Source of the DNA: Stegostoma tigrinum
Lineage: Eukaryota
Direction of reading: 5' to 3'
Length of the DNA: 64,000 nucleotides
Assembly (NCBI RefSeq): GCF_030684315.1
Contig: NC_081369.1
Span: 45,491,598-45,555,597 of the forward strand
Each line of letters begins with the position of its first letter. Positions within the stretch are counted from its first letter, which is position 1. The translations under genes and the position numbers were made by a program. Of this stretch, positions 6,001-61,424 are shown one piece after another. Under the pieces are notes generated by a model. It did no database searches. It saw only the letters and a program-made list of their open reading frames with translations, and had not been told where the DNA came from.

Positions 6001-9000
6001 ATGGACGTGGGGGGAGGGGGGGGATGGACATGGGGGGAGGGGGGGAGGGGGGGAGGGACGTGGGGGGATGGGGATGGACGTGGGGGGATGGACGTGGGGG
6101 GAGGGGGAGGGCGGGATGGACGTAGGGGGAGGGGGATGGACGTGGGGGGAGGGGGATGGACGTGGGGGGAGGGGGAGGGGGATGGACGTGGGGGGAGGGG
6201 GGATGGACGTGGGGGGAGGGGGATGGACGTGGGGGGAGGGGGATGGACGTGGGGGGAGGGGGATGGACGTGGGGGGATGGACGTGGGGGGGATGGACGTG
6301 GGGGGATGGACGTGGGGGGATGGACGTGGGGGGAGGGACGTGGGGGGAGGGACGTGGGGGGAGGGACGTGGGGGGAGGGACGTGGGGGGAGGGACGTGGG
6401 GGGAGGGACGTGGGGGGAGGGACGTGGGGGGAGGGACGTGGGGGGAGGGACGTGGGGGGAGGGACGTGGGGGGAGGGGGGGATGGACGTGGGGGGATGGA
6501 CGTGGGGGGAGGGGGGGATGGACGTGGGGGGATGGACGTGGGGGGAGGGGGGGGATGGACGTGGGGGGAGGGGGGGGATGGACGTGGGGGGAGGGGGGGG
6601 ATGGACGTGGGGGGAGGGGGGGGATGGACGTGGGGGGAGGGGGGGGGATGGACGTGGGGGGAGGGGGGGATGGACGTGGGGGGAGGGGGGGATGGACGTG
6701 GGGGGAGGGGGGGGGATGGACGTGGGGGGAGGGGGGGGATGGACGTGGGGGGAGGGGGGGGATGGACGTGGGGGGAGGGGGGGGATGGACGTGGGGGGAG
6801 GGGGGGATGGACGTGGGGGGAGGGGGGGATGGACGTGGGGGGAGGGGGGGGATGGACGTGGGGGGAGGGGGGGGATGGACGTGGGGGGAGGGGGGAGGGG
6901 GGGGGACGGACGTGGGGGGACGGACGTGGGGGGGACGGACGTGGGGGGACGGACGTGGGGGGAACGGGGGGGGACGGGGGGACGGGGGGGGAACAGGGGG
7001 GGGACGGGGGGGGAACAGGGGGGAGGGGGGGGAACAGGGGGGAGGGGGGGAAACAGGGGGGAGGGGGGGAACAGGGGGGAGGGGGGGGAAACGGGGGGGA
7101 GGGGGGGGGAAACGGGGGAACGGGGGGGGAGGGGGGGGAACGGGGGGGAGGGGGGGAACGGGGGGGGAACGGGGGAACGGGGGGGAGGGGGGGAACGGGG
7201 GAGGGGGGGGAACGGGGGGGAACGGGGGGGAGGGGGGGAACGGGGGGGGAGGGGGGGGAACGGGGGAGGGGGGGGGAACGGGGGAGGGGGGAGGGGGGGA
7301 ACGGGGGGGGGAACGGGGGAGGGGGGGAGGGGGGGAACGGGGGAGGGGGGGGAAACGGGGAGGGGGGAACGGGGGGGGGGAACGGGGGGGGGGGGGGAAC
7401 GGGGGGGGGGGGAAGGGGGGGGGGGAAGGGGGGGGGGAGAAAGAGGGGGGGGGACGGGGGCGGAGGGGAGGACGGGGGGGGGGGGGACCGGACGGGGGGG
7501 GGGGGACCGGACGGGCGGGGGGACCGGACGGGGGGGGGGGGACCGGACGGGGGGGGGAACCGGACGGGGGGGGGGAACCGGACGGGGGGGGGGGAACCGG
7601 ACGGGGGGGGGGGAACCGGACGGGGGGGCATGGATGGTCGGGGGGGAATGGATGGTGGGGGGAGGAGGGGGGGAATGGGGGAGGGGGGGAGGGGGGGGAA
7701 TGGGCGTGGGGGGGAGGGGGGGGAATGGGCGTGGGGGGAGGGGGAGGGGGATGGACGTGGGGGGACGGACGTGGGGGGACGGACGTGGGGGGACGGACGT
7801 GGGGGGACGGACGTGGGGGGGAGGGGGGTGGACGTGGGGGGAGGGGGGAGGGGGGGGGGTGGACGTGGGGGGATGGACGTGGGGGGAGGGGGATGGACGT
7901 GGGGGGATGGACGTGGGGGGGATGGACGTGGGGGGATGGACGTGGGGGGATGGACGTGGGGGGATGGACGTGGGGGGAGGGGGATGGACGTAGGGGGAGG
8001 GGGATGGACGTAGGGGGAGGGGGATGGACGTGGGGGGGACGGACGTGGGGGGACGGACGTGGGGGGAGGGGGGGTGGACGTGGGGGGAGGGGGGGAGGGG
8101 GGGGGTGGACGTGGGGGGGATGGACGTGGGGGGAGGGGGATGGACGTGGGGGGAGGGGGATGGACGTGGGGGGATGGACGTGGGGGGATGGGGAGGGGGA
8201 TGGACGTGGGGGGAGGGGGATGGACGTGGGGGGAGGGGGATGGACGTGGGGGGAGGGGGATGGACGTGGGGGGAGGGGGATGGACGTGGGGGGATGGACG
8301 TGGGGGGAGGGGGAGGGGGGATGGACGTAGGGGGAGGGGGATGGAAGTGGGGGGAGGGGGATGGACGTGGGGGGAGGGGGGGGGATGGACGTGGGGGGAG
8401 GGGGGGGATGGACGTGGGGGGAGGGGGGGGATGGACGTGGGGGGGGATGGACGTGGGGGGAGGGGGGGGATGGACGTGGGGGGAGGGGGGGGGATGGACG
8501 TGGGGGGAGGGGGGGGAGGGGGGGGAGGGGGGGGAGGGGGGAGGGGGGGAGGGGGGGGTGGACGTGGGGGGGAGGGGGGGGAGGGGGGGGGACGGACGTG
8601 GGGGGAACGGGGGGGACGGGGGACGGGGGGGGGGGGAACAGGGGGGAGGGGGGGAACGGGGGGGAGGGGGGGAACGGGGGGGAGGGGGGGAACGGGGGGA
8701 GGGGGGGACGGGGGGGGAACGGGGGGGGAAACGGGGGGGAGGGGGGGAAACGGGGGGGGAGGGGGGGAACGGGGGGAGGGGGGGGAGGGGGGGGGAGGGG
8801 GGGGGAGGGGGGGGGGAGGGGGGGGAGGGGGGGGAGGGGGGGAGGGGGGGGGGAGGGGGGGGAACGGGGGGGCGGGGGGGAACGGGGGGGAACGGGGGGG
8901 CGGGGGGGAACGGGGGGGCGGGGGGGAACGGGGGGGAACGGGGGGGAGGGGGGGAACGGGGGGGAGGGGGGGGGAACGGGGGGAGGGGGGGGAGAACGGG

Positions 9001-10612
9001 GGAGGGGGGGGAGGGGGGGAGGGGGGGAACGGGGGAGGGGGGGAGGGGGGGAACGGGGGAGGGGGGGAACGGGGGAGGGGGGGAACGGGGGGAGGGGGGG
9101 AGGGGGGGGAACGGGGGAGGGGGGAGGGGGGGGAACGGAGGGGGGAGGGGGGGAACGGGGGGGGGAACGGGGGGGGAGGGGGGAACGGGGGAACGGGGGG
9201 AGGGGGGAACGGGGGAGGGGGGGGAGGGGGGAACGGGGGAGGGGGGGGAGGGGGGAACGGGGGAGGGGGGGGGAGGGGGAACGGGGGAGGGGGGGAGGGG
9301 GGGGGAGGGGGGGAACGGGGCGGGGGGAACGGGGGGAACGGGGAACGGGGGGAACGGGGGAGGGGGGGGACGGGGGGAACGGATGTGGGTGGGGGGGAAC
9401 GGATGTGGGTGGGGGGGGGGGAGAACGGATGTGGGTGGGGGGGGGAGGGGGGAATGGATGTGGGGGGAGGGGGGATGGATGGGGGGGAGGGGGGGATGGA
9501 TGGGGGGGAGGGGGGGATGGATGGGGGGGAGGATGTGGGGGGGGGAGGATGTGGGAGGGGGAGGATGTGGGAGGGGGAGGATGTGGGAGGGGGGGATGGA
9601 TGTGGGTGGGAGGGGGGGATGGATGTGGGTGGGAGGGGGGGATGGATGTGGGTGGGAAGGGGGGGATGGATGGGGGGGATGGATGTGGGGGGGGAGGGGG
9701 GGGGGAGGGGGGGGATGGATGTGGGGGGGGAGGGGGGGGGTGGGGGGGGAGGGGGGGGGAGGGGGGGGAGGGGGGGGGGAGGGGGGGGGATGGGGGAGGG
9801 GGGGGATGGATGTGGGGGGGGATGGATGTGGGGGGGGATGGATGTGGGGGGGGAGGGGGGGATGGATGTGGGGGGGGGATGGATGTGGGGGGGGATGGAT
9901 GTGGGGGGGGATGGATGTGGGGGGGGAGGGGGGGATGGATGTGGGGGGGGATGGATGTGGGGGGGGATGGATGTGGGGGGGGGGAGGGGGGGGATGGATG
10001 TGGGGGGGAGGGGGGGATGGATGTGGGGGGGGAGGGGGGGATGGATGTGGGGGGGGAGGGGGGGATGGATGTGGGTGGGGAGGGGGGGATTGATGTGGGT
10101 GGGGGGGGATGGATGTGGGTGGGGGGGATGGATGTGGGTGGGGGGGATGGATTTGGTTGGGGGGGAGTGGGGGATGGATGTGGGTGGGGGGGAGGGGGGG
10201 GGATGGATGTGGGTGGGGGGGGAGGGGGGGGGATGGATGTGGGTGGGGGGGATGGATGTGGGTGGGGGGGATGGATGTGGGTGGGGGGGTGGGGGGGATG
10301 GATGTGGGTGGGGGGGGTGGGGGGGATGGATGTGGGTGGGGGGGAGGGGGGGATGGATGTGGGTGGGGGGGAGGGGGAGATGGATGTGGGGGGAGGGGGG
10401 GGGGATGGATGTGGGGGGAGGGGAGATGGATGTGGGGGGAGGGGGGGATGGATGTGGGTGGGGGGGAGGGGGGGATGGTTGTGGGTGGGGGGGGAGGGGG
10501 GGATGGATGTGGGTGGGGGGGGGAGGGGGGGATGGATGTGGGTGGGGGGGGAGGGGGGGATGGATGTGGGTGGGGGGGGATGGATGTGGGTGGGGGGGGG
10601 AGGGGGGGATGG
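1..10612. repeat. Extremely G-rich composite minisatellite array in CDK10 intron 1
   Basis: Ordered sub-arrays of GGATGGACGTGGGGG(GA), GGAACGGGGG, ACCGGACGGG and, from about 9380, GGATGTGGG(T). The plus strand has essentially no C or T runs. It ends about 60 bp from the CDK10 exon 1 donor. Confidence 0.97.
4314..4326. other. Assembly gap (13 N)
   Basis: Run of 13 n characters. Confidence 0.99.
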
Positions 10613-10619
10613 AGACAGG

Positions 10620-10880
10620 GTGCTGGGGCTGCTCTCTCGTGGATCGCGACTGCGCGTTCACCAGCGCTACCTTGTCCTCTGTGGGCACCGTGAAGCTGCC
10701 CTCGTATTTCAGCGACTTCAAGCGGATTTGATCCGGTCCGTCATTCACATCCGCCATGATCCGGAGCAGCTTCTCTCCCAGTGAGCCGGTGGCCGATTAT
10801 TCACTCCCCCGCTGTTAACCCGCGGCTTGATGGCCGACCATAACCTTCCAGAGTGAAGGAGCAGGAAACTGCGCCCCCAT
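10620..10880 (-). promoter_or_regulatory. CpG-rich CDK10 promoter / first-exon region
   Basis: Local CpG enrichment around the start codon against an AT-rich, CpG-poor background to the right; YY1-like ATGGCGG overlapping the ATG. Confidence 0.55.
10671..10757 (-). CDS. CDK10: Cyclin-dependent kinase 10, coding exon 1 (rest of gene lies left of the window)
   Basis: Minus-strand ATG at 10757 gives MADVNDGPDQIRLKSLKYEGSFTVPTEDK, then a GT donor (AAG|gtagcg). Matches the remembered human CDK10 N-terminus (QIRLKCIRKEGFFTVPPEHR), has the same 29-codon length, and fits the CDK10-SPATA33-CHMP1A synteny. Confidence 0.88.
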
Positions 10881-19512: not shown

Positions 19513-19651
19513 TCATCTTTTCTTGTAAATGTGTTTACGTGTTTGAAAGTGTGGGTACTTCATGTTGACAAAAGTTTCTTTTGACAAAAGCTTCCTCGGT
19601 ACATGTTTGTGTCTATTCTTTAACGTCACAACAAACAGGTTCAAAGATCTC
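19513..19651 (-). other. Candidate next exon of the SPATA33-like locus
   Basis: Acceptor aatttcag at 19652; the frame matching the phase-2 donor at 20119 is open (RSLNLFVVTLKNRHKHVPRK...KKR*). Confidence 0.3.
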
Positions 19652-20119
19652 CTGAAATTACATTTCATTACAGTCAACTTAGAAGTTAGAAAAAAATGAT
19701 AAAGTGAGCCCACCACCTCTACCATCTGTAACAGCTTGAAAATATGCTTTAACTGGAAGTTTTTAAGCTGAATATCATGGTGACATAAGTTGTTAAATGT
19801 GGATAGGCTTAGTGGAATCTGTATCGAACAGCAGCACTTTAACAGAGAGCAAGTTAGAATGAACAGTTTTAAATAAAAAGAACTACAGGCTCTGGAACTC
19901 AGAAACAAAAACAGAAATTGCTGGAAAAACCCAGGTCTGGCAGCATCTATAGAGAGAAAGTAGAGTTAACATTTTGGGTCCTGTGACGCCTCTTCAGAAG
20001 TTCAGTTCATGGTCACCATGGACAGAGATGAAAATACTGATTGACTTTTGCATATGTTTTATAAAGAACTGCATTTTGAATTATGTAATTTCTTCCCATA
20101 ATGTGTAACTTCAAGTTAC

Positions 20120-20362
20120 TTTTATCTCCCAGTACTGGCAGTGTAATGTTTTCTGGCAGCATCTTTTCTCTTCTCTTTTTGACCGGGTGCCATTGAAGTC
20201 GGATAATTTCTCCAATTAAGTTTTCTCTTCGCTTTTTGACCAGGTACCTTCAAAGTTGAATTCTTTCTCCAATTAGACGTAGATGATGAAGGTGTAACTA
20301 TAATTGTAGGATGAGGAAATATTTGTCTATGCTGTCATCCTTTTTTGGCAGGGGGATTTTAT
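20120..20362 (-). pseudogene. Candidate SPATA33-like exon (frameshifted or pseudogenised)
   Basis: Acceptor ttctttag at 20363 and donor gtaact at 20119. Reads DKIPLPKKDDSIDKYF, then after a 1-nt shift PHPTIIVTPSSSTS-NWRKNSTLKVPGQKAKRKL-NWRNYPTSMAPGQKEKRKD-AARKHYTASTGR*. PxIxIT-like motif at the syntenic position and strand of SPATA33. Confidence 0.5.
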
Positions 20363-22289
20363 CTAAAGAAATTATTTTTAAAAGAGTAATCAAAGTCCAA
20401 GCGTGGGAAAATAAGAGGTTCAACAAAATTCCCTAATAAATCAAAAGTTTGGCCTCTGGCTTTATATCTATTCTATGATTTGTACTTCTCTCCAGTTTTG
20501 TTTGACCAACTGCACTATAACCCAAAAACCACACAACATTGGAATTGGCAATTCCAATTTCAATATTAATATTGGCATGAATCTATACTTATATGGTTTA
20601 GTCCAAGTTGTGTTGAGTTTTATTGGTGGGGGGGGGGGGAACGGTTTGGCAAGAGGCCCAGCAGGTTTTCTCACCATCTTACTCAACTGGCTGCATTAAT
20701 TAGCTACCCAGCTCTGATGATATCTCTCATATTTGATTCCTTTTCTCATCCTAATCCTTGGGGAAAAAAAAAATCAGCAAACACTCTTTTTCTCTGTTCC
20801 CTCACACTTACTCTGTCTCGGAGACTGCACCCACCTCCCGCAAAGGCACTTTGAGCACTTTCAGGATTGCATTCAATGCCTTCCCTCATTTGTTCTCTTC
20901 AGTCTCCAACACCAATAACTCTATACACCTCCTGCTCAGAACTTACCACCTCATCTCCCACTATAATCTCACTCATTGCTCCCATTTTGCTCAGAAGAAG
21001 TCAGCCCACAAGAGATCAGAAAGCCCAAATGGTGAAGGGATGTAAGACATCTGTCTCTTCACTCCCGACACAGAAACGATCCTGGCCCTTGCAAGAGAAG
21101 GCTGGGAGCACTCCTGAAGGATGCAGAAACACACAGGTCTCACCAAACAACTAAGTACTATGTTTCATTCCACAGCAACTCTTACCACTGCCCGCAATCT
21201 TTGTACACACTTCTAACCATAGGCCACGACATCTTCTCCCTCTTTTGTGTTGCAGGTTCCATTAATCTCCTGCTCCACGACTCCTACAGAGAAGGAGTAG
21301 GCTCCAAGAGAAGCCCCATTCTCAACCTGAGAGGATGAGATTACGAAGATCTCAGAGAAAGCATCACCTAGGTCATCTCCTACATCTCCCAACCAGTCCA
21401 GATTGTGACACCTTGGAGCGAATCATAACATTGAGAGACAGTGTCTGTACATAGTCTGGTGAGCAGCTCACAGTGACAGCTTCACCAGGCCAAGGAATTA
21501 AAGGCCCACACAGCTGGCAAATGAAGGACAACCAGTGCCAACACCATGTGATTTTTAGTAATCAGAGGGGCATCACCCGACGATGACAGGCATATGGGAT
21601 GCAATGGACCCCACATTGCTAGAAGCAGTATCAGTGCAGAGAATCCTGCCATCGTCTGTCTTCTTCCATGAACAGATTGGCACTGCCAAGAAGAATGAAA
21701 TCCAGTATTGTCAGGGACTGCGGAGGTGCACCTATTGCTCTATCCATTGATCCTCAGGACCAGAACCATGTCAAAGAGGAGGGATGCTTCACCCCAGTTC
21801 AAGTGGCCCGACCTCATGAGGAGACAGGATGGTGCCAGGTGAAGCCCATCCAGAGACTGTACCACGTGCGCACACACGCACATGCACACATAGAGGACAT
21901 TGCAGAGGTGGCCAGAGTCTTCAACTCCACCCTGCCTCCCTACTCTGACATTTGGACATTCAAGGCAGGGGGGATTGGCCTGTCTCCGCAAGAAGACCCT
22001 TGTCATAGCTGGCTGGCAGCACCCCTGGAGTCATCCCACCAAACCTCCAGAGCCAAATGGGGCACAACAGCTGACCAGGCTCCCTCAACCCCAAGTGCAG
22101 AACCAATTAATGCACTGAGACATAGTGGGAGGGAACAAAGAGAACCTATTGAGGGCACTTTTGGGGCATAGGTGAAAAAGATATGTCCATGAATAATACT
22201 TTCTGCATTAATGCTCCTGATGTAAACAATCATGTGCTTGGGAGTCTCTCTCTGTGTAGGCAATAAACATGCATTAACACCTTCCATCA

Positions 22290-22960
22290 GCACTTCATGG
22301 TCACAGACTAGGTTCCATCACTGCTCACAATGTGGTCTCCTCTACATTGAGAAATGAAGCATAGTCTGGGTGACTGTTTCATAGAATACCTATGTTCTAT
22401 CTACAAAAATGAACCAGAGCTTCCAGTTCGCAACTTCCAGTTGCCTGCCAATTTAATACACTACCTTATTCCCTGGCCAACACCTCTATCTCAGGCCTGC
22501 TACAGGGCCCCAGTGAAACTCAGGACAAGCTGGAAGGACAGCAACTTATTTTCCATTTGGGAACACTGCAGCGTTCTGAATACAATACAAGTTCATCAAT
22601 TTTAGGATGTGAGGCACCTTCTCCCACTTCCTTACCCCAGTACCCACTCAAAAGGCCTTGTTATCACATGGTCTGCTATTGCACACCAACCATTGATAAT
22701 CACTAATAGGCCCCATTAGCAGCTATTCATCCTTTTTGACTGACCTTGATCTGTCCAACTGTTCTCTCACTTTGGCTCTATCTCCACCTATCATTTACTC
22801 CATTTCCCCCTCCCCACCCTATCTTCTGTATTTAAAAAAACCTTTTTCCAAGCTACCATCACTTCTGAGGAAGGGCCACTAGACCCAAACATTAACGGAT
22901 TTCTCTCTACGCATGCTGCCGGACCTGCTGAGATTTTCCAGTAATTTCTGCTTTTGTTTC
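22290..22960 (+). mobile_element. Penelope-like element 3' fragment (GIY-YIG remnant plus terminal repeat)
   Basis: CSQCGLLY..., LGDCFIEYLCSIYKNEPELPV; then a pyrimidine-rich tract and a CTGAGGAagggccactagaccc hammerhead remnant near 22865. Confidence 0.82.
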
Positions 22961-24185
22961 CATGGATGGAGGACTGAGCAGGGACTTATTGAACCATCTG
23001 GGAGAATGAATGAAATAAAGTGGAGACAAAGCATTGGATCATAATGACACCTTTGTCCCTCCCCAGTCAAAACACTACATTTGGCTTTCTGTGGGTGCAA
23101 AGGTGTAAATCTCAAAGAACTGTTTACCAGTTACTGTGCCACGGTGGGACAATGCGCAAACAGCTTAAATGCTATGGGATGGTCAGAGATTCAGGAGCCT
23201 ATGTGAGGTGTATACTTACTTCAGTCTGTGACGTATGTTCTTTCCCTTTGTAAGTCCAATGCTCAGTTTTTGTTGCAGCCCATTCCCCAATTATAGGATT
23301 TGAGGCACCTTGTCCCACTTCCTTACCCCAGCACCCACACAAAAGACCTTGTTATCACAGGCAAAGTCACTGAACCACCAGCTCAGAGTTTAGCCACTTT
23401 TCTTCGAACACACTGCATATTCAGATTCTGCATGGTGGAAGGTGAAAGATGGCACACCTCTGCCAGTGACTTCCAGTCTCAACCTGAATGTGCTAGCGAG
23501 ACCCTACACACCACATCCCCTTCCTAGTATATCATCCCATTGATCCCACAGGGTTCACACTTCCCCAAGTCCGCAATCAAGCTGCCTACCTGAGTCTACA
23601 CTGCTCAGCTTCCGCACCCAGCCCCTGGCAATATGAGGTGAGCATGCTAGGCATGGTCATTCTGTGATGACTCCCTTCCCATTTGAAGCAGGGTGCTTCT
23701 AACCATAGACAAACCTCTCCTCCCAGCTATGCTTTACGATGTCCTGCTAATACTGCTTTTACACTCCCCATCCCCCACTGCCCCCCCACCACTGAAATAA
23801 CTGCACTGTACCTGTGGCTACAGGCTGCAGCTCCTAGTCCCAAACAGCAAATGTCAAGGCTCAGTCACCTGTTTTGTCTCCAACTTCCCTTCTCCCTCAG
23901 TCTCTGTGGGTGGTTCCAACTAACCATAATCCACATCCTTGACTGACATAGCCAGACAGTCATGTTCAAAACATGCCTGGACCCCCTGGCTTATGCTTAT
24001 ACATGTCCCCAAACACTTTAGGGGCATCCTTCCCCTCCTCCAGATTTGCTGCTTCAGAACCAATGCACTGACTGTGACCCACTCTCTGGATTTGTACAGG
24101 AGGATGCCCTTGATTTATTGTGCCCGGACCCCCTGTCTGAATCAATTGAGGATTACTCTCCCAGGAGTAGGATACATGGCTACCT

Positions 24186-24238
24186 AGATAATAAAATGTG
24201 AGGCTGGACGAACAGCATCTGCAGTTCCCATTATCTCT
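24186..24238. mobile_element. 53-bp collapsed Penelope-derived insertion
   Basis: Only the outer tips of the terminal-repeat arms, flanked by gatacatggctacct at 24171-24185 and 24239-24253. Confidence 0.8.
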
Positions 24239-24354
24239 GATACATGGCTACCTGCTTACTGCACATGTATTGTCTTTTCCATGTAAGGTGCTTACACGTG
24301 GTGCAGATCTGAGATTGGCATAATGCACTGCAGTATTGTGCAGAAGGTCAAAAG

Positions 24355-24725
24355 GTGGCCTTATGAAGGTTTGTAAAATTATGAGAGGTATAGATAAGGT
24401 GAATAGTAGGTGTCTTTTGCCAAGGACGAGGGATTCAAAGACCAGGGGACATATTTTTAAGGTGAGAGAAAGATTTTAAAACATATAAGGCAACTTTTTT
24501 TTTGAAACATGGAGTGTGGTTTGTTTGTGAAATGAACCTCCTGAGGGAGTGTTGGATGCAAGTATCATTACAATGTTTAAAAGACATCTGGGTAAGCATA
24601 TGAATAAGAAATGTTTGGAGGAAATTGGACCAATCTCAGACAGGTGGGACTAGTTTAGTTTGGGATTATGGTCAGCAGGGGCCAGTTGGACCAAAGGATC
24701 TATTTCTATGCTGTATGACTCTATG
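24355..24725 (+). mobile_element. CR1-type LINE 3' fragment
   Basis: Degenerate KIMRGIDKV ... TRGH ... FKRHL coding remnant and a ctatgactctat-like tail. Confidence 0.75.
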
Positions 24726-25556
24726 TGTACCCCTCTAGACTGAGGATTACTTAAAAGCTTTCATGACTGCACTCATTGGTAGTGCAAGGCCAGCAGGGAT
24801 GCTACAAGTATGGAGTTAAGTGAGCGCTAAGTAAGCAAGTGTGCTAGACTAGTCTCTGATCTGGGTGCTCCAGCAAAGCGTCCCCAGTACAGTCTTTCAA
24901 ACCTGGATGTTGGTGTGCCCTGCAATGCAAATCTGTGCTTTCAGAGTGCAATGCCAATCAGCAGAGGAAGAGGCAGAATGTATTGACAAATCAGCTGGCA
25001 AAGTCTGTGACTGAAGATGTACATGCCTGGCACATGTAGACCATGCCCCGAGTGTTTTTGACCAGTGTCTAACATGAAGATCGATCAGAGCAATGGTGAG
25101 CTGAATCCACTAGATGCATACTCTGGTTTCCTTGTTAAGTATTCAAGATGTCTAGTTTGCTTGGTGAGTTTCGTGCAGTGAGAGTTTGAATATTAATGAG
25201 GTGAGCTGTGGCGTTAAAAAGGCAATTAACAATCAATAATGAGCACCAACTGGCATCTCACTGCTGCCAAGTGAGAATCTGGCCATTGCAACCCACTTAG
25301 CACAAGTACACCCACAATACCATCAGGGAGCTCCGCAGTTCTGTCCCAACAACACTGACGGAACATTAGTAAATTTCCAAGTAAGGATGGTGAGTGGTGA
25401 CTGGTGGCATGAATTACCTACTCCTGATTCTATGTTGCTATGTTCCTAAAATTTTCACTTCTTTGTATTCCAGACCCCTTTGGGTGAAGATTAATTTTCT
25501 TTCCCTGCAGTAGAATTCCATGTGTACATGTCAAAGAACTAAGAAATGGCCATGAA

Positions 25557-25882
25557 TTAAGAAAGAGTTAAGAAATCCAGAACCAGAGGACACAGTTTAA
25601 AAATAAGGGGTAGGCCATTTAGAACAGAGTTGAGGAAAAACTTCTTCACCCAGAGAGTGGTGGATATATGGAATGCTCTGCCCCAGAAGGCAGTGGAGGC
25701 CAACTCTCTGGATACTTTCAAGAAAGAGATAGATAGAGCTCTTAAAGATAGTGGAATCAAGGGTTATGGGGATAAGGCAGGAACAGGAAACTGATTGTGG
25801 ATGATCAGCCATGATCATAATGAATGGTGGTGCTGGCTTGAAGGGCCGAATGGCCTACTCCAGCACCTATTGTCTATTGTCT
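25557..25882 (+). mobile_element. Young 5'-truncated CR1-type LINE with 13-bp TSD
   Basis: Open KSRTRGHSLKIRGRPFRTELRKNFFTQRVVDIWNALPQKAVEA; (tctattg)n tail; aaatggccatgaa at 25544-25556 and 25883-25895. Confidence 0.9.
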
Positions 25883-26461
25883 AAATGGCCATGAAAGGAG
25901 AGATGGGATTCAAAGGATGAGATTCTGCTTCATGGTTCACAGTCCATAGGATTTCAATAGAAGGATTCTTGCTAATGCATATGTGAGATCTAAGCAGATA
26001 CTACTTTCAGGATTTTACTATGGAAACTGCATCTGACAGAATATACTCCAATAGCTGACATAACAAGAAATGGAGAATATTCCATCACGAAATGCATTTT
26101 ATGAATGGTAGAGAGTCAAGGGCTTACTTGTCACTGAATTCCCAGATGTTAACCTGCTCAGGTAGCCATAATATTCATATTGTTGGTTCAGTTAAGTTTT
26201 TGGTCCATGGTGATTTCCCATAATGTTGACATTAAGGGATTTCAGTGATGGTGATATTACCATCAAGGAAAAGATTATTCTGTCTTGTCAGTGTGGTAAC
26301 TACCACCTGTGATGCAAATATTACTTTGCAGCACAATCCTGAGTGCTGTTCAGGTAGACCACATGGTCTAGTCCAATAATAGGGAACACCTGGTATGACA
26401 AGTCAAGTTATTTTCATTTGGGTCCAGATAATGCTGAAAGCTAATTACCCTAATGGTTCAG

Positions 26462-26575
26462 AGATAATGGGAACTGCAGATGCTGGAGAATCCAAGATAA
26501 CAAAGTGTGGAGCTGGATGAACACAGCAGGCCCCGCAGCATCTCAGGAGCACAAAAGCTGACGTTTCGGGCCTAG
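26462..26575 (-). mobile_element. Penelope terminal-repeat fragment with 15-bp flanking direct repeat
   Basis: gagataatgggaactgcagatgctggagaatcc... flanked by accctaatggttcag at 26447-26461 and 26576-26590. Confidence 0.82.
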
Positions 26576-26966
26576 ACCCTAATGGTTCAGTTGGTTCTCA
26601 AACAATGAACAACTTCAAAATTGTCAGAACTACATTCTGCTAAAGTGATGGGTAACTTTTGGTTGCGAACTGCAGCTAGGTATGTGTCATTGGTCCTTCG
26701 CTGGTTGGTTGTCCTAGATACTTTGGTTTAATGACCCTTGGGACTGAGTGCAAACAGATGTCCCCTTGCTTGTACAAAATTCTCAGCAACACAATGGACA
26801 TAAATAAGCAACTTACAGACGAAAGTGCAGATTTCCACAGGTTGCTTAAAAAAACATCAATGGTCAGAAGTAAAAATTGTACGTGGAACAAAAGCAGGGA
26901 AGAATTTAAAATTAAACTGCAGCACAATTTTTTAAAAAATTAACTTTGTGCCCACTGAAGACTAAC

Positions 26967-27016
26967 TCTTGTACTTTATCCTTCCGACGTTTCCAGTAGC
27001 TGCTTGAGATACCCAT
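26967..27016 (-). other. Candidate first coding exon of the SPATA33-like gene, head-to-head with CHMP1A
   Basis: gtcATGG context, MGISSSYWKRRKDKVQ, donor GA|gttagt at 26966. A phase-compatible 28-nt exon follows at 26817-26844 (ttttttaag| ... |gtaagt; DNLWKSALSS). Confidence 0.4.
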
Positions 27017-27059: not shown

Positions 27060-27350
27060 ACAGAGTGCGCTACCACCGACCGACAGCACTGTCAGAAGAG
27101 CCCCTGTGACGTCACCCGGCGGTACGTCCGCGTCACATGACAAACGCGGGCGGCGTGGCCATGACGTCACCGGGGTACCTCGCGAGAGTTGGGAGCGGAG
27201 GTTGGGGCCTAGCTTGCCGGAAGAAGGAAGCAGCCGCCGCCGTCGCTGCTCAGGGAGACCATGGATGGTAGGCTCGTTCAAACCCGACAGCTCCTTTCAC
27301 CGAGGACACGGCGCTGCGCCCCGCAGTATTGTTCACTCGCTCGGTTTCGT
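27060..27350. promoter_or_regulatory. CpG-island promoter of CHMP1A, probably bidirectional
   Basis: High CpG density; CRE TGACGTCA at 27107-27114 and 27162-27169; GTCACATGAC at 27132-27141; CCTCGCGAGA at 27178-27187; ETS CCGGAAG at 27217-27223. Confidence 0.8.
27261..27267 (+). CDS. CHMP1A: Charged multivesicular body protein 1A, coding exon 1
   Basis: Kozak accATGG; ATGGATG|gtaggc; phase 1 joins exon 2 to give MDDTLFQLR. Confidence 0.88.
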
Positions 27351-27553
27351 TTAGCTGGGGTTGTCAGGCTTTAGTTTTGACCTGGACACGGATGCAACAG
27401 CGTTAGCCATAGTGGGAAGTAAATATATGAGGGTGTGGAGTAAATGAGGGGAGAGGAGTAAATCAGGGGTGTTGGGGCGGGAAGGAAAGTAAGAGGGTAG
27501 TGAGAAGTGGGATTGGTAAATGTGGGGGCAAGTAAATAAAGGGGGTAAGGGTA

Positions 27554-27662
27554 GAGATAATGGGAACTGCAGATGCTGGAGAATCCGAGATAACAAAGTG
27601 TGGAGCTGGATGAACACAGCAGGCCAAGGAGCATCTCAGGAGCACAAAAGCTGATGTTTCGA
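27554..27662 (-). mobile_element. Penelope terminal-repeat fragment in CHMP1A intron 1
   Basis: Same gagataatgggaactgcagatgctggagaatcc... unit. Confidence 0.8.
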
Positions 27663-27969
27663 GGGTGGATGGGATGTGGGTGATTAGCTGGAAGTGAAGC
27701 AGAACAGGGGACCCTCATCTGTCCCTGTGCACCAGGTACATGTAGAAGTGAAGAGGTCACCCCTGATTAGGGCCCTAAGTGGAGGTGTTTGATACATACT
27801 AGCAAAGGGGTATGGCTTAAAGGGATTCAAGTGAAAAGGAATAGCTTACATTTGTAAAATTGCTTTTGTTTCCTGTCTGCTTCACAGCTAATGAGTTGCA
27901 TTTGAAGGGTAGACAATGTTTACTTGTTAGTTTGTGAAGAGAGAAGATAGAAAGCGGGACATAACAACA

Positions 27970-28066
27970 CCAGCGCTTCATCAGAGGCTGACTGATGATG
28001 TTACCTAGAATGGTGACGAAATGTCTGAAAACTAACCTTCGAGCTCAGCGAGCAAACTCACATCCA
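27970..28066 (+). ncRNA. Hammerhead-ribozyme-like motif in a third Penelope-type terminal fragment (CHMP1A intron 1, sense)
   Basis: CTGATGA (27992-27998), stem GTTACC-tagaat-GGTGAC, GAAA (28018-28021), TGTC. Confidence 0.55.
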
Positions 28067-28539
28067 GACAATCATAAGCAGAAATAAATTAAATGAACAG
28101 ATCATCTTTGTAATGATTGAAGGTTGTGTTAGACAAGACAGACCCTTTGTTTACTTTTCTAAATATTCTAAATCATGAGGGGACTGGTCAGGGAAAAACT
28201 TGCAGTTGGTGAGATGTTTGAGACCCAGGTGTTTGCTTTCTTTGTGAAAGTCAACAGCATGGAAAGCTGTCTTCTGCAGTGAATAGTTAAGATCTGGTTG
28301 GGCATGTACTGCCTGTAAAGATCAGTGCAGGTTCAATTATGGCTTTCTGAAAAGAATAGACTAATTATCTCAAGATAAATGTGCAAGGCTGTCTGGGGTG
28401 GGGCGGAGTGGGGGGGGTGGTGGGGGGGGTGGGGGTGAGAAGGACAGTAGCACAAAGTGAACTTCTTCACAGACCCAGCACAAATGTAATGGGCAAAGTG
28501 GTCTGCTTCTGTGCAGCAAATGTTCGATGACCTTGGTAG

Positions 28540-28695
28540 GCTCTCATCTTAATGCCTCATTGGAAAGGCAAAACTATCTCATTACTGCACTACAGTGTCA
28601 GCCTCCCTTAAATGCTTGATAATTTAATATGGGGGTAGCTAACCCATGCCTTTCTGGCTGAGGACAGCACGTGAGCCATTGAGCCAAGACTGACT
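28540..28695 (-). mobile_element. Decayed tRNA-headed DeuSINE/SacSINE1-like element
   Basis: Reverse strand gtcagtcttggctcaatgg ... aggctgacactgtagtgcagtaatgag ... atgaggcattaa resembles the remembered Deu-domain SINE head. Confidence 0.45.
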
Positions 28696-30892
28696 GTAAA
28701 AGACAGCAACTTGTGTTCATTTAGTTCTTCCAACTAAGAGAATGTCGAGGTACTACACAGGCATAATGGAAAAATGAACAATGAGCCAAAGAATATGGCA
28801 TTGTGAAAGGTGACCAAAAATTGGTTGAAGTTATTTTAAGAGGGATCTTAAAGCTGGAAAACATAGTGATTTAGGAAGAGAACCCTAAAATGGGGAATTC
28901 AAATGTTGTAAAGTGTGGCCCTCAAAAATGGAAAGAAAGAAATGGGACATCCATAAGAGGCTAGAGTGTAATCGGGTGTTTCCAGAAAGGATTTTCTCAG
29001 TGAGAGAAATATATTGAGGGGGAGGAGTGAGCCCATGAAGAAATTTAAAAACAAGGATAATATGAAATCTGACCTATTGGAAAACTGGTGTAGATCAGAG
29101 AGGATAAGGTTGATGCTTCAGCTGCAGGATGGGATGTAGGCAGTAGAACATTGAATGACTCATTTATTATGGGTGGAGTTCTGTCAAGGACAGATTTGGA
29201 ATATGGAGTGTGCAGGTGACAAAAGTACAAGTAAGGGCTTCAATTCCACATGGACTTGGGTATTGGGAAAATGGGTGACCTGGGATTGGAAATGAATGAT
29301 TTTTGTGATAAAAAGAATGTGAAGTTGTGATTCTCTGGGGGTTGAATGAAATGCCATGTTGGCAACCTAATAAGGTTGTTATAATTAGTCTGCTATGGCT
29401 CATTTTCTATATTTAATTCTCATTCTCTAATGAATCTCTTGACAAACTTGTACTTGCAGCATCAGTTAACAGGATTAAATAGGTGTGATTCCTTCAGATA
29501 GCACCCTAGAGATTGTGAAATTCTATTGTCCAGTAGTGAACAATTCCAACCTGGGGATTTGGAGGGCATTGTCATAAAGATCAGATTTTTAAATTCATTC
29601 ATGAAATGAGGATGTTGCTGGTTCGGCCAACTTTTTTTATTGCCTACTGCAGTAGACCATTAAGAGTCAACAACATTGCTGAGATTTTGAGTTTCATGTA
29701 GACCAGGTAAGGTTGGCAGATTTCTTCCCTTTGACATTACTGAATCAGATGGATTTTCCTTGTTAATCGACAGTGGTTTCATGGTCATCGTTAGATTCAT
29801 AATTCCAGATTTTGAATGAATTCAAAGTCAACGACTGGAATTGAACCCAGGTCTCTGGATTAATAGTCCAGCAATAATACCACTAGGTCATCGCCTAGCC
29901 TTAAATGGCAAAATATTGGAGTGTAGTTGGGTGAGAGAAGCTGAACTGCATGCAGTTGAGCAATATAATTAACATATAATTTTTAGGGTTAACGATCTTT
30001 CTGTGGTCTTAAGAGGGCCACAGCTTTGCTGTACTGTTGGGCTAGGCTCATCTAGCTTTGCCTGAAAACTAACTAGTGACTTAAAAATTTAATGTGATTT
30101 CCGAATCTTTAACACACGTTGTGGCTGTTCAAGACAGCAGCTCAGTGCCTTCTCAGTGATAAATAGGGACAGATGTTAAACACTGGCCACAAGAGAATTT
30201 TTAAAAACTCACGTGTTCTGATTGAGTTCATGGGCCTGGCACCAGAGAATGACTTAATTGAATTCAACCTCGTCTTTAAGAAAAATGTGTAGCATTTTTT
30301 GACTAACATTGACTTTTCTGGGTTTGGATTTCCAACTTGACATGTTAGACACTTCCTGGTTTCAGTCTGAAGCCACACCCTGTAAAATGAGGTGATCAAC
30401 ATATGACATCACTTCACGTTGTTAGAATACTTGGGAAGATCTACAGTATAACATTTGTTCCTACAATAGTCCCTTTTTATGAATTTTCATGCTTCTTACA
30501 GTATCCAAATTGCTTCTCTATATCCAGTGCAAGTAGATTCAAAATACTTTGTCTCACTCTAAAATAAAAATTGGAGGTAAAGAAATGTATATCAAGATTT
30601 AATGGAGAGAAATTTCAGCAAACTGGGTGTTTTGAATTAATCAGTCTAAGTATTGAGGTTAGGTGTACAGAAAGCTGATTCTGGGTATCACTGATTTCCT
30701 GTTTAGATAATGCATTTATCTTTGAAAATATGAGTTGTACTTAAATCTTTTAAAAAGATGGCCATGAAAATCTAGTGTCGGCAATGTGATGCCGTTAGAT
30801 TGAAGCTGGAAATCATGTTTGCATTCCATTATAGGTAGTTAATGTATGGACTCATGTTGATCTGCAGTGTGGTTGATGATCCAAAGTGTGAA

Positions 30893-31255
30893 AACATGAA
30901 CGTGGACTTTGAGTAGGCCACTTGGCCCTACAGCCCCCTGGTCTGCCATTCATAAGGACATGGCTGATCTGATTCTAACCTCAACTCTGTTTGTGCATTT
31001 CCCAGATAAACTTTCTTCAACTTGGTAATCAAGAATCTATCTACCTTTGTCATGAAAATATTTAGCGTTTCAGCATCTGCTGCCTTTTCAGGAAGAGAAT
31101 TTCAAAAACTCTGAACCCTCGGAGGAAAGAAAAGGTTTCTTTTGTCTCCATTTTAAATGGGTGACTCTTTAATTTTAAAATATGACCTTAATTTTAGATT
31201 CTCCCAAAAGAGAAACATCCTTTCACATCCATGTGGTCAAGTCCCCTAAGAATCA
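30893..31255 (-). mobile_element. CR1-type LINE 3' fragment
   Basis: LRGLDHMDVKGCFS remnant and CR1-like 3' UTR. Confidence 0.7.
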
Positions 31256-31661
31256 GCTGAAAAAACATTGTAATTTTTGAACTTTCTGTTCCAGTCATCA
31301 ACATATAGATATACTGATGATGCTGTGTGGAATCGGCCTTATGTATTTCTTCTGTTGGTTTCCTCATTTTCTTTTCACTTGACATTTGAAATTGGGCAAC
31401 ATTTGTGAGGCTGTATTTGTAGCCAGTTCACAACTTCATGTTGTGGGATTTGAACATGCAGCTTCAGTGTTGCTGCCGGATTAATGACTATTAGTTTATA
31501 ATAATGTCCTGAGGTTAGAAAAGGATGCTGTAGATGAAAGCACATGCCTTCTTGACAAATTGACTTGTACAAGTAAGATGCACATGTTTGACACTTGATA
31601 ACAAATAAATGTCAATAATGCTGATTTGTGTTTAATTGTCTCTTTTTGTTTGTTGTTACAG

Positions 31662-31681
31662 ATACTTTGTTTCAGTTACGG
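31662..31681 (+). CDS. CHMP1A: CHMP1A exon 2 (20 nt)
   Basis: ttacag|ATACTTTGTTTCAGTTACGG|gtaagg, encoding DTLFQLR. Confidence 0.92.
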
Positions 31682-32144
31682 GTAAGGACCAAAAATCTAA
31701 TTTGTTTTTCCTGTTTTAGAAATTTACTAGCATGTTAATTTACAAATTTCACATTGCCTATGATGCAATTGCAGTACAGTAGTGTGGTAGGATTTCTCAT
31801 TGAAACCTATACACAAACTATACATGCACACAGCCTATTTACAGCAAAAGGATCAATCAATTTATTGTGCTCTCTCATCTCTCCTCTATGGCCCACTACC
31901 TGTGGAGCTTCTTATGTCATGTGTTCTCTGCCCTTCCCTTCCCCATCACCAGTACCATGACTGTCACCCCAGGGTTTAAAAAAAAACAACATGCTCACAG
32001 ACATAGAAGCTCAAAGAATTGATTTCTGGTCTTTCTAAGTTAGCTAGTATTAACCAGAAAAAGTGGACAGCCCCATTTGTCAATAATTGGAAAGCAAAGG
32101 GCAGGACTTCCCCTTTAGCTCATTATCCAGCAATTCTTATCCTG

Positions 32145-32325
32145 TACTGGAAAACAAATGCTGGAGAAACTCATTAGTTCTGGCAGCATCTGTGGATAGA
32201 GAAACATTTATGTTTTGAGCCCAGCGTGACTCCTTCTCAGTTCTGAAGCAGATGCTGCCAGATTAACTGAATTTCTCCATTGGTTGGTTTTGATCTCCAG
32301 CATCTATAGTGCTTTGCTTTGATTT
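32145..32325. mobile_element. Fold-back Penelope-derived miniature element
   Basis: Inverted arms tctggcagcatctg / cagatgctgccaga and tgctggaga / tctccagca. Confidence 0.65.
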
Positions 32326-32583
32326 GATTATCGTTTCTCTTCTACTTGCCACTAGAACTAGGTTTGGGTGTTTTTAAATTGCTGTGGGACATTTCTGATG
32401 CTATCTGTTTATTGACATTCATTGTTCAGGATCACATGAGAAAAATCACCTCTAGAATGATTTACTAAGGGAACATGCCCAAAATTTGGGGCAGGGAAGA
32501 CTCAATACTGGAAGAATTACTTTGCTGCTTTTTTTATACATATTACATCGAGGTATTTTATCATTCTTTTGAATCTCTTACAG

Positions 32584-32661
32584 TTTACATCAAAACAGCT
32601 GGAGAGATTGGCTAAGAAGGCAGAAAAGGATTCCAAAGCTGAGCAAGCTAAAGTGAAGAAG
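32584..32661 (+). CDS. CHMP1A: CHMP1A exon 3
   Basis: [26 protein letters not shown] with AG/GT boundaries. Confidence 0.96.
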
Positions 32662-33077
32662 GTTAGTGTTTGCTTTGCATATTTTCAGTTGATGATTTCC
32701 TGAATATAACTACTTATTACAGTGCATATTCTTATAATTTTGATCTCGTGCCAGAATGAGTAAACTTGATAGGCTAGGTAGTATTTTCATTGGTTTTGTT
32801 GCTTGGTAATTAGATCCCATCTGTAACTGTTGGAAGTAAGGCAGAGCTGTCACATGTACTGACTTCTATGATTCACAACTATTCAAATAATTGTCACCTG
32901 TTGATATGTTACTGTCACTTTTAGGCTACTTAATCGTGCCACCCACCCACCCAATTTTATTTTGGCTTTTATCAATAATTGTGTTCCAAATTTTTACCTG
33001 TATGCTTCCAGTCTTAAGTGGTAAAGTGAGAAGGAGGATTATGAGAATGATAATCACTTTTTCTTCTTCCACCCAAG

Positions 33078-33224
33078 GCTCTTCAACAAAAAAACATTGA
33101 AGGAGCAAAGATCTATGCCGAAAATGCAATTAGAAAGAAAAATGAAGGACTGAACTGGTTGCGAACAGCTTCCCGGGTAGATGCTGTAGCATCGAAGGTG
33201 CAGACAGCAGTCACGATGAAAGGG
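33078..33224 (+). CDS. CHMP1A: CHMP1A exon 4
   Basis: [49 protein letters not shown] with AG/GT boundaries; Snf7-family sequence. Confidence 0.96.
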
Positions 33225-33921
33225 GTATGAAATAACTGCTGGTACTTCTCAAAGAACTTCATTCCTGTGCTCCATGTACCGGACTTATTACAAATTGTTG
33301 AGAATGTTCTGCAGATGCACAAATAATGCTGATCAGACCTGGTATGCACAGGATAGTTGCCCATCTTTCTCGTCTCTGTCCCTCTTATGTAAATCTTTGA
33401 GTCAAGGGAATTGTTCGTGGATTGACTGACAAGATGAAATTGTCCTTTTTGTTTTAGTAAGCCTTACTTCACAATGCAAGGACTACTGGATGAATAATCC
33501 CAATTTAAAGAAGCAGAAGTGGCATGATAATACATATTAGAATATTGGTGAAGCAAAAGGTAAAGAGAAAGCACAAGATCCTTAAGGCAGTTACTGAGGT
33601 GGATAAACTGTGAACAGTCATGTGCACTTTTATAAATTTGAAGTTGTAGTACTATTATTGTGCTGACTCAGTATGTATCACAGAATCTACATACTCTGTG
33701 ATAAGAGGGTGTAATGGAAGCATATTTAATTGTGGAAAAATTAAAACCAATGATGTGCATTTAGGCTAAGTAGATAGAATGGATCCTGGAATGTGTACAA
33801 CATGCTGTGGCCTTAATTGATAATCAAGACCAAGGTAACAACATCTATATTTTATTTAATGAGATGGATCAATCTTTTGACAGATTTCAGACTTTGATTT
33901 ATTTTTTACTTATATCTCTAG

Positions 33922-34050
33922 GTTACAAAGAATATGGCGCGTGTAACACAAGGATTGGATAAGGCACTGAAATCCATGGATTTGCAAAAGATTTCTGCTG
34001 TAATGGACAAATTTGAGCAACAGGTTCAGAACCTTGATGTCCACACTTCA
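33922..34050 (+). CDS. CHMP1A: CHMP1A exon 5
   Basis: [43 protein letters not shown]|gtaagt. Confidence 0.96.
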
Positions 34051-34240
34051 GTAAGTACTTTTTCCACTGTTGAAGACAACTGATATTTGTGTACATCTTT
34101 TTGGATCCTTTATTCTTCTTTAAATGTTTTAGTTCGTTGTACATAGATATTTGGAATCGTTTTATTGTTTCCCTTGTATTTTCTGCCTGTCTGTATTGTT
34201 AAGTGCAAGTTGTTACTAAGTGGCACATTTTTATTTACAG

Positions 34241-34434
34241 GTGATGGAGGACTCGATGAGTTCTGCAATGACACTGACCACTCCTCAAGAACAGGTTGAT
34301 AGCCTCATCATGCAGATTGCAGAGGAAAATGGGCTGGAGGTCATGGACCAACTAAACCAACTTCCAGAAGGTGCAGCATCCCTTGGTGAATCCTCTGTAC
34401 GTGAACAGGATAAGGAAGACCAGCTTTCAAAAAG
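34241..34434 (+). CDS. CHMP1A: CHMP1A exon 6
   Basis: [64 protein letters not shown], phase-2 donor. Confidence 0.96.
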
Positions 34435-35504
34435 GTGGGAGCTATGGGACACTTACATTTTAAACTGTTTTAATATAACATTTGTAAATGGATTATAAAC
34501 TTTAAATCTTATTGTAGTGGATATGAGAGAAGTAATGCAACATATGAGATGCAATTCAAATGAGTTTCCCTGGCTATTTCCAGCAGCACTGTGAAATAAC
34601 TATAACAAATCTATTTACTTTGGAATTTCCTGCCACAGTTCATTTAGAAGTCTAATGTAAGCCTTTTCTGTGATTGGAATGCTAGTTTAAAGGAGTTTTT
34701 CAATGGAATGTAAATGTAATGTTTGAGTAGGAACAGGGTGGCTTGGTATCCTGGTTTATTGAACTCCTCTGTCAATCATCTTATTAAAGGTGTGCATTAA
34801 TTTTTTTTTAAGTTTCCCCGTGCCCTTGTCCGTAAAATGATCAGACCTTCCTCCCATCCCTTTCTATCTCCGAGATGGATGCCTCTGTTTTATATCCTCT
34901 CCATCCCAATTCCCTGGTCCACCATTTATTCAAAGGCCTCTTACTTTTTTCTGGTCTACTGTCTACCCGCTGTCTGATATATTTATGTTATTACTGTCAC
35001 AGTCTTCATCCTTTTTCTTTTAATAGTCCACCCAAAATCTCCCTTGCTTCCACAGCCATGGCTGAGGTCTTAAAATAGTCTCGCTTTTAAAGTGCAACAA
35101 AATTCAAGTCAGTCATTTGATATGCTCTGATATGTGTAGCTTCTTGCAGCTATTCATTAAAGTGTAACTGATTTCGGGTTGATTAGAACTTGATCTCAGG
35201 TAGATATGTTAGCATGGCAAAACCACCAGTTACCTGGTGTCTGCCAGATGACTGGCAGTTATCTTGCAAAGTTGTTCAAGTTTAAACCATCATTTGATGG
35301 GTCAAGGCATTGTCCTGAGTTGTAAACTGAACAATGTTTGTCATCTTTTAGTTAAGTTGAAACAGGCACAATGCATATGCACTATTTCTGTCTGCAATAC
35401 AAGGGTCCTTTGTATTAGTGTATGTAGGTTTTGATGTACGCCAGTGCTGACTGACAATCTTTAGTTGTTAATATAATTTCTGGAATACTTAGGATTATTT
35501 AGCA

Positions 35505-36735
35505 AACACAGAAGTTTAGTAGCAAAAGTAAACCACTTAGCCATTTAATAAGATCATTGCTATTTGAACATTGCACCTTCCCTGTTAACAAAGTGTGGAG
35601 CTGGATGAACACAGCAGGCCAAGCAGCATCTTAGGAGCACAAAAGCTGAATTGGGATGGAGAGGATATAAAACAGAGGCATCCATCTTGGAGATAGATGA
35701 AGGGTCTAGGCCCGAAACGTCAGCTTTTGTGCTCCTAAGATGCTGCTTGGCCTCCTGTGCCCATCCAGCTCCACGCTTTGTTATCTCGGATTATCCAGCA
35801 TCTGCAGTTCCCATTACCGCTGCGCCTTCCCTCTTGGCTTAACCTTTCACTGCCATGCCTATCAAGAATCTATATGCCTATCTGCCTTTAAAATTATTCA
35901 AAAACCCTGCTTCTCATCATCTGTGTCTTAAATGGGCTACCCTTTATTTACAACCAGCCAACACCAGCTCTTTTCACATACACCCTGTCAAGACCCTGCA
36001 GGATTTTGTATTTCGATCAAGTTGCCACTTTCTTTCCTAAACTTGACCCTATCCTGAGCAATCTTTCCTCCTAATACAGCCCACCCCAGGTATTAGTCTA
36101 CTACATCTTCTGTGAACTGTGACCAACATGCTTTTTTGGTCTCCTTATTTAAGGAAGGCTGTAACTTTGCAGTACTTCGGGCGCGGTGTCATCAATGCCC
36201 TGAATAACTGAAGCATAATCTCTCTAGTCTTGCATTCAGTTCCCCTCACAATAAGCAATAGTATTCTGTTGGCTTTCCAAACGACTTGCTGTACCTGCAC
36301 ACAAATCTTTTATGATTCATGCACGAATATACCCAAATCCCTCTGCATTTTAAAAGCACTGCAACCTCCTTACAATTTAAATAATTTTTTGCCAAAATGT
36401 ATAACTGTCATCTTCCCACAGTATACTTCATTTGACATAACCTTTTCATTCACGGAAGCTCTCTTAATCCCTTTGCAGTGCCCATATGTTATTTTCACAA
36501 ATTACCTCCCTCGTCTATCTTTTGTCATCTTCAAATTTAACAACTGGACCTTTTGGTCCCGTCAGCCAAGTCAGTTATAAAAATCTCTGAGACACACCAT
36601 ACGTTACACGTTGCCAACCAGAGCATGGCCCACTTGTGCCTATTTCCTGCTTTCTGTTAGTTAACTGATGTTCAATCCATGTTAGTATGTTACCTTCTCA
36701 TACTTTGAGTTTTTATTGTCCACAATAACATTTGT
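35505..36735 (-). mobile_element. Old CR1-type LINE fragment in CHMP1A intron 6, interrupted by a Penelope-derived element
   Basis: Degenerate CR1 RT/C-terminal remnants; nested element at 35584-35820 flanked by tgc(a/g)ccttccct (35572-35583, 35821-35832). Confidence 0.7.
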
Positions 36736-36987
36736 GGAATCTCAAGCGTTGTCCAATGTGAAATTGCATCTACTGTTGAATACATCATTCTGTACTTGTT
36801 TGCTTTGGTAAAATGGTCAGCGGCATGGCCATAATGTACCCAATCCTGCGTGTGGGAAAAAATATACAACCAAATTTATTTGTTGTAATCCTGAGTTCAA
36901 ACTTTGTAATTTTAAAATGTTTAAACAAAGTGTGTATGTAATTTTGTTTTCCTGGTGCTCTCATGACTTATCAATGTTCTTTTCCAG

Positions 36988-37009
36988 GTTGGCTGCTTTG
37001 AGGAATTGA
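36988..37009 (+). CDS. CHMP1A: CHMP1A exon 7 (C-terminus and stop)
   Basis: ttccag|G TTG GCT GCT TTG AGG AAT TGA = RLAALRN*, completing the MIM1 motif. Exons sum to 597 nt (198 aa plus stop). Confidence 0.95.
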
Positions 37010-60098: not shown

Positions 60099-60246
60099 AG
60101 CAGTTTCCTATCTTGCAAATGTTATTCCTGATTTCACTGATAACTGTTTGATTAATATAATTAAATATGGTGAGGACTTCTTTGCTTCATCAGAGACCAA
60201 CTATATCAGAAGAATAGACCCTAGAACACTTGAAACATTGGAAAAG
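60099..60246 (+). CDS. BCO1: BCO1 exon 4
   Basis: AVSYLANVIPDFTDNCLINIIKYGEDFFASSETNYIRRIDPRTLETLEK. Confidence 0.96.
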
Positions 60247-60319
60247 GTGAGATTTATTGCAATTAAACTCTGTTGGGACTCTTATGGTTGACAGCTCATT
60301 GAACAATTGTGTTTACATG

Positions 60320-60558
60320 AGAACAAAAACAGGTTACTGGAAAAGCTCGACAGGTCTGGCAGCATCTGTGAAGGGAAAAGCAGAGTTAATGTTTCGGGTC
60401 CGTTGACTCTTCCTCAGAACTGCGATTCTGAGAAAAGGTCACCGGACCCGAAACTCTCTTTTCTCCTTCACAGACACTGCCAGACCTGCTGAGCTTTTCC
60501 AGCAGCTTTGTTTCTGTTCCTGATTTACAGCATTCACAATTCTTTCGTTTTTTTAATT
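60320..60558. mobile_element. Fold-back Penelope-derived element (second family) with 13-bp TSD in BCO1 intron 4
   Basis: Inverted arms around ctcagaac-tgcga-ttctgag; ttgtgtttacatg at 60307-60319 and 60559-60571. Confidence 0.85.
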
Positions 60559-61276: not shown

Positions 61277-61424
61277 GTTGACTACACAAAGTATGCTTCT
61301 CTGAACTTGGCGACATCTCATCCACATTATGATGAAGATGGAAACACTTACAATATAGGCACCTCCATCGCTGAGAAAGGCAAAACAAAATACATGATTG
61401 TGAAGATACCAAATACAAAGCCAG
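61277..61424 (+). CDS. BCO1: BCO1 exon 5
   Basis: VDYTKYASLNLATSHPHYDEDGNTYNIGTSIAEKGKTKYMIVKIPNTKP (HPH motif with the first iron-ligand His). Confidence 0.96.

Follow-up and report, generated by a model that had tools for sequence, protein, structure and literature searches.

Mouse SPATA33 docks calcineurin through the motif PQIIIT and connects it with mitochondrial VDAC2, and human SPATA33 likewise binds somatic calcineurin (PMC8536318). The mouse gene has three exons and encodes 132 residues (PMC3699523, PMC7937689), residue 44 being encoded in exon 2 (PMC8536318), and an N-myristoylation site is predicted for SPATA33 (PMC3699523). This small sperm gene has been described in mammals only, and the gene or its motif is called conserved there (PMC3699523, PMC7937689, PMC8536318). 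The other system close to it is calcimembrin (C16orf74, MICT1), a disordered microprotein with myristoylation of Gly2 and a PxIxIT motif followed by Pro (PMC12612047). Here we analyse a stretch of 64,000 nucleotides from the carpet shark Stegostoma tigrinum (contig NC_081369.1 of GCF_030684315.1, positions 45,491,598 to 45,555,597; hereafter the window), in which the interval between CDK10 and CHMP1A holds a SPATA33-like locus. We lean towards reading this locus as a decayed, non-coding relic, i.e., a unitary pseudogene, of a SPATA33 orthologue, and it seems rather likely to us that SPATA33 is ancient and that the gene is broken in this shark. An initial annotation of the window had also proposed a pseudogenised SPATA33; this is the best reading here too, from several weak positional signals, while no family match was obtained and the consensus error that it had allowed for is unsupported.

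In human a single deletion takes out exon 1 and the promoter of CHMP1A together with the entire SPATA33 gene (PMC10544971), i.e., the two genes adjoin, and the 16 kb between CDK10 and CHMP1A in the shark are therefore the expected slot for SPATA33. The candidate is placed accordingly, as a divergent neighbour of CHMP1A, upstream of CDK10 and on the CDK10 strand, the order and strand that SPATA33 has relative to CDK10 in mammals. The start that had been proposed for it was confirmed: the ATG at 27016 on the minus strand opens a frame that translates as MGISSSYWKRRK (MGISSS…), 245 bases from the CHMP1A ATG at 27261. It has the MGxSxS form of the SPATA33 start, and the pattern MG.S.[SR] is found at two of 2137 ATGs, this one included. 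The other, at 16984 on the plus strand, is the sole further case in 11000-64000; this is not the strand on which the gene is expected, and the match is probably due to chance. From published primers the mouse protein begins with MGQSKS, and KPREK comes next (PMC7937689); by summed score against these residues the ATG at 27016 ranks fifth among the 2137. The score is carried by the first six residues, for which seven of the 2137 ATGs do as well. Two minus-strand ATGs (27162 and 27138) lie nearer to CHMP1A, within the CpG island, and each is followed by a stop in at most 10 codons. The shared promoter contains two perfect TGACGTCA palindromes of the cAMP response element (CRE) type, at 27107 and 27162 and thus 55 bases apart, which are the only such sites in the window; the next ATG beyond the second of them is that at 27016. 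CRE-type sites are bound by CREM in spermatids. A 9-base match to a primer in the mouse Spata33 5' untranslated region lies between promoter and start; when the 110 bases that precede the ATG were shuffled 5000 times, such a match arose in 96 cases, and there are six 9-mer matches of this kind in the window.

The second part of the candidate lies some distance downstream on the same strand. The reading frame that had been described there, containing PTIIVT at 20310 and RKHYTAST, is present as 70 open codons (frame B, 20334-20125) between a TGA directly upstream of 20334 and a TAA at 20124-20122. PTIIVT is the sole strict PxIx[IV]T match in the window (about 128,000 six-frame codons) and agrees with the loose PxIxIT consensus of bioRxiv 10.1101/632547. 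Downstream of it 56 further codons are open, which is the case at 647 of 11,270 positions (5.7%), and the content of disorder-promoting residues in the frame is equalled by 3 of 242 open reading frames (ORFs). The frame includes an old tandem duplication of 19 codons; a comparison of its two halves over 18 codons shows 3 synonymous and 7 non-synonymous changes (proportions per site, pS 0.29 and pN 0.16), and as these are just 10 changes selection on the duplication cannot be inferred. Residues 60-65 of mouse SPATA33 are SEDKPE (PMC7937689), and the shark exon, opening with D-K-I-P behind an AG 52 bases upstream of the motif, resembles the mouse protein in this D-K pair. Sites of the type AG|AYAAR, which would open an exon with D-K, number five in the 16.1 kb, and two of them lie at most 52 bases upstream of PTIIVT. 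Contig depth is that of single-copy DNA over 20048-20263, and a repeat origin of the PTIIVT exon was rejected on this ground. The adjoining segment 19886-20047 is a very high-copy short repeat, with summed contig depth up to about 4e5 and copies elsewhere in the window.

The frame of this exon is broken upstream of the motif. Entered in phase 1 from the acceptor at 20362, frame A reads DKIPLPKKDDSIDKYFLILQL and then meets TAG at 20300-20298. As the PTIIVT frame opens only at 20334, use of this acceptor places the break between 20334 and 20310; translation would end at 20300, short of the motif frame, and there would therefore be no calcineurin anchor. The initial annotation had suggested that a base was lost from the consensus near 20320, in a T run. 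Contigs from all four public runs span 19955-21000 and agree with the window at every letter, without gaps. These runs belong to a single study of two samples at most and are perhaps the source of the assembly itself, and rare alleles are dropped in contigs. Even so, a random consensus error is an unlikely cause of the break. That the assembly is wrong and the gene intact, for which it can be said that one added base near 20320 joins frame A to frame B, we hold to be very improbable in view of these contigs and of the T run, which is just three bases long. Programmed -1 frameshifting at the A AAA AAG of frame A was considered and rejected, as the shifted frame meets TGA at 20337.

In mouse Spata33, exon 3 contains both the docking motif and the stop codon; it begins in phase 1, with the boundary at D62. 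From there to the end of the mouse protein are 71 residues; in the shark, acceptor to TAA are 238 bases, 57 of which are the tandem duplication. The initial annotation had noted the TAA at 20124-20122 just before the donor, with a next candidate exon continuing in phase. Given a mouse gene of three exons with motif and stop in the last, this TAA is more simply, and probably, the natural stop of the last exon than a lesion. The two extra exons that had been proposed, a micro-exon and one at 19651-19513, are therefore unnecessary, and neither found support. The micro-exon had been given no coordinates, and the minus strand of 20400-26950 holds 14 candidate exons versus 25 on the control strand, so that it is not above chance. 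The exon at 19651-19513 has an acceptor score of -6.5, its ORF has no Pfam match, and the upstream part of this ORF crosses the high-copy repeat at 19886-20047.

Set against the two known systems, the locus would function in the manner of SPATA33 and, though similar to calcimembrin in design, is not calcimembrin. As in SPATA33 (C16orf55, DUF4609), the candidate is head-to-head with CHMP1A, has Gly2, Ser4 and Ser6, carries a PxIxIT-type motif with a D-K pair shortly upstream, and is short and serine-rich. No match to the family profile was obtained, and unlike SPATA33 it lacks the segments RTIREH and AYDVHNTE and a detected middle exon; its frame is broken and its exon contains the 19-codon duplication. 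With calcimembrin it shares the design, predicted from sequence, of a lipid anchor combined with a calcineurin docking motif. On the other hand FPHPTIIVT is not the composite LxVPxIxIT, and there is no Cys among the first 14 shark residues, whereas calcimembrin is S-acylated at Cys7 and Cys14. The C16orf74 locus is presumably also different from the CHMP1A-CDK10 interval. Membership of SPATA33 is not established, as position, start and motif agree and the C-terminal segments and an intact frame do not; it is plausible that the locus is a new, broken member of this known family, and orthology is unproven.

On the relic reading, the CpG promoter in common with CHMP1A would in the ancestor have driven a short minus-strand transcript. 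Its exon 1 would have encoded an N-myristoylated basic N-terminus for membrane anchoring, and its last exon a disordered tail in which the PxIxIT-type motif docked calcineurin, much as mouse SPATA33 does at sperm mitochondria. The middle exon may since have been lost, and with the frame break upstream of the motif and the poor splice sites no protein would be made today.

The decayed-gene reading has to be weighed against coincidence, in which SPATA33 is absent from the shark or specific to mammals and start, motif and ORF merely fall, in repeat-rich intergenic DNA, where a gene is expected. We consider this possible but doubtful. The following data weigh in its favour or against a SPATA33 relic. 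When the interval strand was shuffled 300 times, 20% of the shuffled sequences had at least one strict motif match, so that PTIIVT by itself is not above chance, and the human proteome has 21,791 loose PxIxIT matches, almost all of them non-binders (bioRxiv 10.1101/632547). Beyond the first six residues the likeness of the start to mouse is weak, 148 of 2137 ATGs being equal over the next six, and at the DNA level 10 of 17 bases of the start are those of the mouse primer, a level of agreement reached by 84 of the 2137. Splice sites were scored with approximate textbook matrices, by which five true CHMP1A acceptors score 3.9-7.6 and true CHMP1A and CDK10 donors 1.2-6.0. The exon had been called splice-bounded at 20120-20362, and AG does stand before 20362 and GT at 20119; its acceptor, however, scores only -4.8, a value matched or beaten by 356 of 1261 AGs in the interval. 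No good donor follows exon 1, those within the open frame scoring at most -1.5, and no middle exon above chance was found on the minus strand of 20400-26950. An intact frame with three coding exons as in SPATA33 is absent from the shark locus. Splice scores this far below those of CHMP1A were counted for decay and also count against homology or function. Two short mouse C-terminal segments, taken from primers, went unmatched in frame B (scores of 12/32 at best for RTIREH and 8/45 for AYDVHNTE), and the HRxPST-type motif that the initial annotation had named was not recovered (no HR.PS in the interval). As of 2013, homologues had been detected in mammals only (PMC3699523).

The homologue searches point in the same direction. 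With the 70-residue ORF of frame B, phmmer gave no match at E 0.001 among 1.84 billion representatives; a word search gave no candidate of near length and confirmed none of 29 longer ones at E 10. The PDB gave nothing at E 10, two attempts on the ESM Atlas gave no usable match, and in metagenome contigs none of 600 pattern stretches was confirmed. A degenerate SPATA33-motif scan of metagenome contigs for the mammalian exon was also negative, and no SPATA33 protein was returned by phmmer, the word search or the motif scan. The protein collection does include CDK10 of 12 cartilaginous fishes, as seen in the 19 members listed for a cluster of 32, and an annotated close orthologue should therefore have turned up. 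DUF4609 was matched by none of 118 minus-strand ORFs of at least 34 residues, with the presence of this family in the Pfam copy unconfirmed; as none of three true CHMP1A exons matches Pfam at E 0.001 either, this is weak counter-evidence. The lack of an annotated homologue was counted for a pseudogene and again speaks against homology or function as well. What coincidence has to explain is the number of agreements required, all with the strand and the order expected of the gene: a start ranking fifth among 2137, a downstream frame as open at 5.7% of positions, a composition equalled by 3 of 242 ORFs, a D-K acceptor 52 bases upstream of the motif and a duplication with a period of whole codons. 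Several of these tests were picked after the sequence had been seen and they are not independent, which weakens the case for homology, and the chance figures were therefore not multiplied.

It is also conceivable that the locus is a working, unannotated short gene with exon 1 spliced into frame B, whose product, a myristoylated microprotein, would dock calcineurin at a membrane. Donor 26974 joined to an acceptor at 20331 (phase 0, 83 residues), or donor 26966 joined to 20326 (phase 2), gives one open frame that begins at the ATG, includes PTIIVT and closes with the TAA. The Kozak context is strong, Gly2 and Ser6 are intact, and frame B has remained open over 70 codons that include the old duplication with its excess of pS over pN. 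Annotation often misses short ORFs. Against this, the acceptors at 20331 and 20326 score -10.2 and -15.9 and have no pyrimidine tract, and for this reason we regard a working form as improbable. In addition, the donors score -2.9 (26974) and -1.5 (26966), better-scoring AGs lie upstream at 20362 and 20339, the contrast between pS and pN is too small in number of changes for a test, and no annotated homologue was found. It is equally improbable, in our view, that SPATA33 goes back to the ancestor of jawed vertebrates, where it was a myristoylated calcineurin anchor encoded next to CHMP1A, and that the shark still makes a form of about 83 residues, which uses an unusual acceptor and has been overlooked in all the annotated chondrichthyan proteomes searched.

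If the locus is a true relic, the origin of SPATA33 would move back to the jawed-vertebrate ancestor, with loss in at least one shark lineage, and this would point to the lipid anchor and the calcineurin motif as the oldest parts of the protein, rather than the mammalian C-terminus. If it is a product of chance there is no such consequence. No study of non-mammalian SPATA33 appeared among the papers listed in the literature searches; gene databases may already list such orthologues, which would reduce the novelty.

Coordinates of the candidate SPATA33-like parts and of neighbouring features in the window
Feature	Position	Strand	Remarks
CDK10 coding exon 1	10671..10757	minus	synteny anchor
Further exon of the initial annotation	19513..19651	minus	unsupported, probably 3' flank
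Putative last coding exon	20122..20362	minus	phase-1 opening D-K-I-P, frame break 20334-20310, PTIIVT, stop TAA 20124-20122
Old in-frame tandem duplication, 57 bp (19 codons)	20164..20275	minus	period 57, 2.0 copies, 81% matches
PTIIVT, putative PxIxIT-type calcineurin-docking motif	20293..20310	minus	sequence match
Putative first coding exon, MGISSSYWKRRK	26980..27016	minus	Gly2/Ser6 myristoylation pattern, basic patch, strong Kozak context
9-mer in common with mouse Spata33 5' untranslated region primer	27076..27084	minus	weak, noticed post hoc
CpG-island promoter, head-to-head with CHMP1A	27100..27300	.	22 CpG per 200 bases, GC 0.66
CHMP1A	27261..37007	plus	coding exons at 27261, 31662, 32584, 33078, 33922, 34241, 36989; synteny anchor

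The flanking genes had been named as CDK10 (minus) and CHMP1A (plus), and both assignments held. CDK10 exon 1 is identical at 29 of 29 residues to CDK10 of S. tigrinum, at 27 of 29 to that of the whale shark (Rhincodon) and at 25 of 29 to those of the bamboo and epaulette sharks. Two CHMP1A exons searched against the PDB had CHMP1A as top match (E 1.5e-22 and 4.7e-26). No further CDK10 exons were found within the window. Beginning right after the donor of CDK10 exon 1, positions 1-10620 are a G-rich tandem satellite of about 10.6 kb, with GC 0.76-0.80, GC skew above 0.8 across 1-10000 and 13 N at 4314-4326; it gives rise to very long plus-strand frames without stops. An Rfam scan of 10500-64000 gave no matches. 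DPEP1, a dipeptidase gene, adjoins CHMP1A in human, but none of 117 ORFs of at least 62 residues was seen to be an exon of it. Two plus-strand ORFs in 59974-61471 match Pfam RPE65 (E 5.4e-7 and 6.3e-5) and are, judging from these matches, exons of a gene for a carotenoid oxygenase that lies downstream of CHMP1A.

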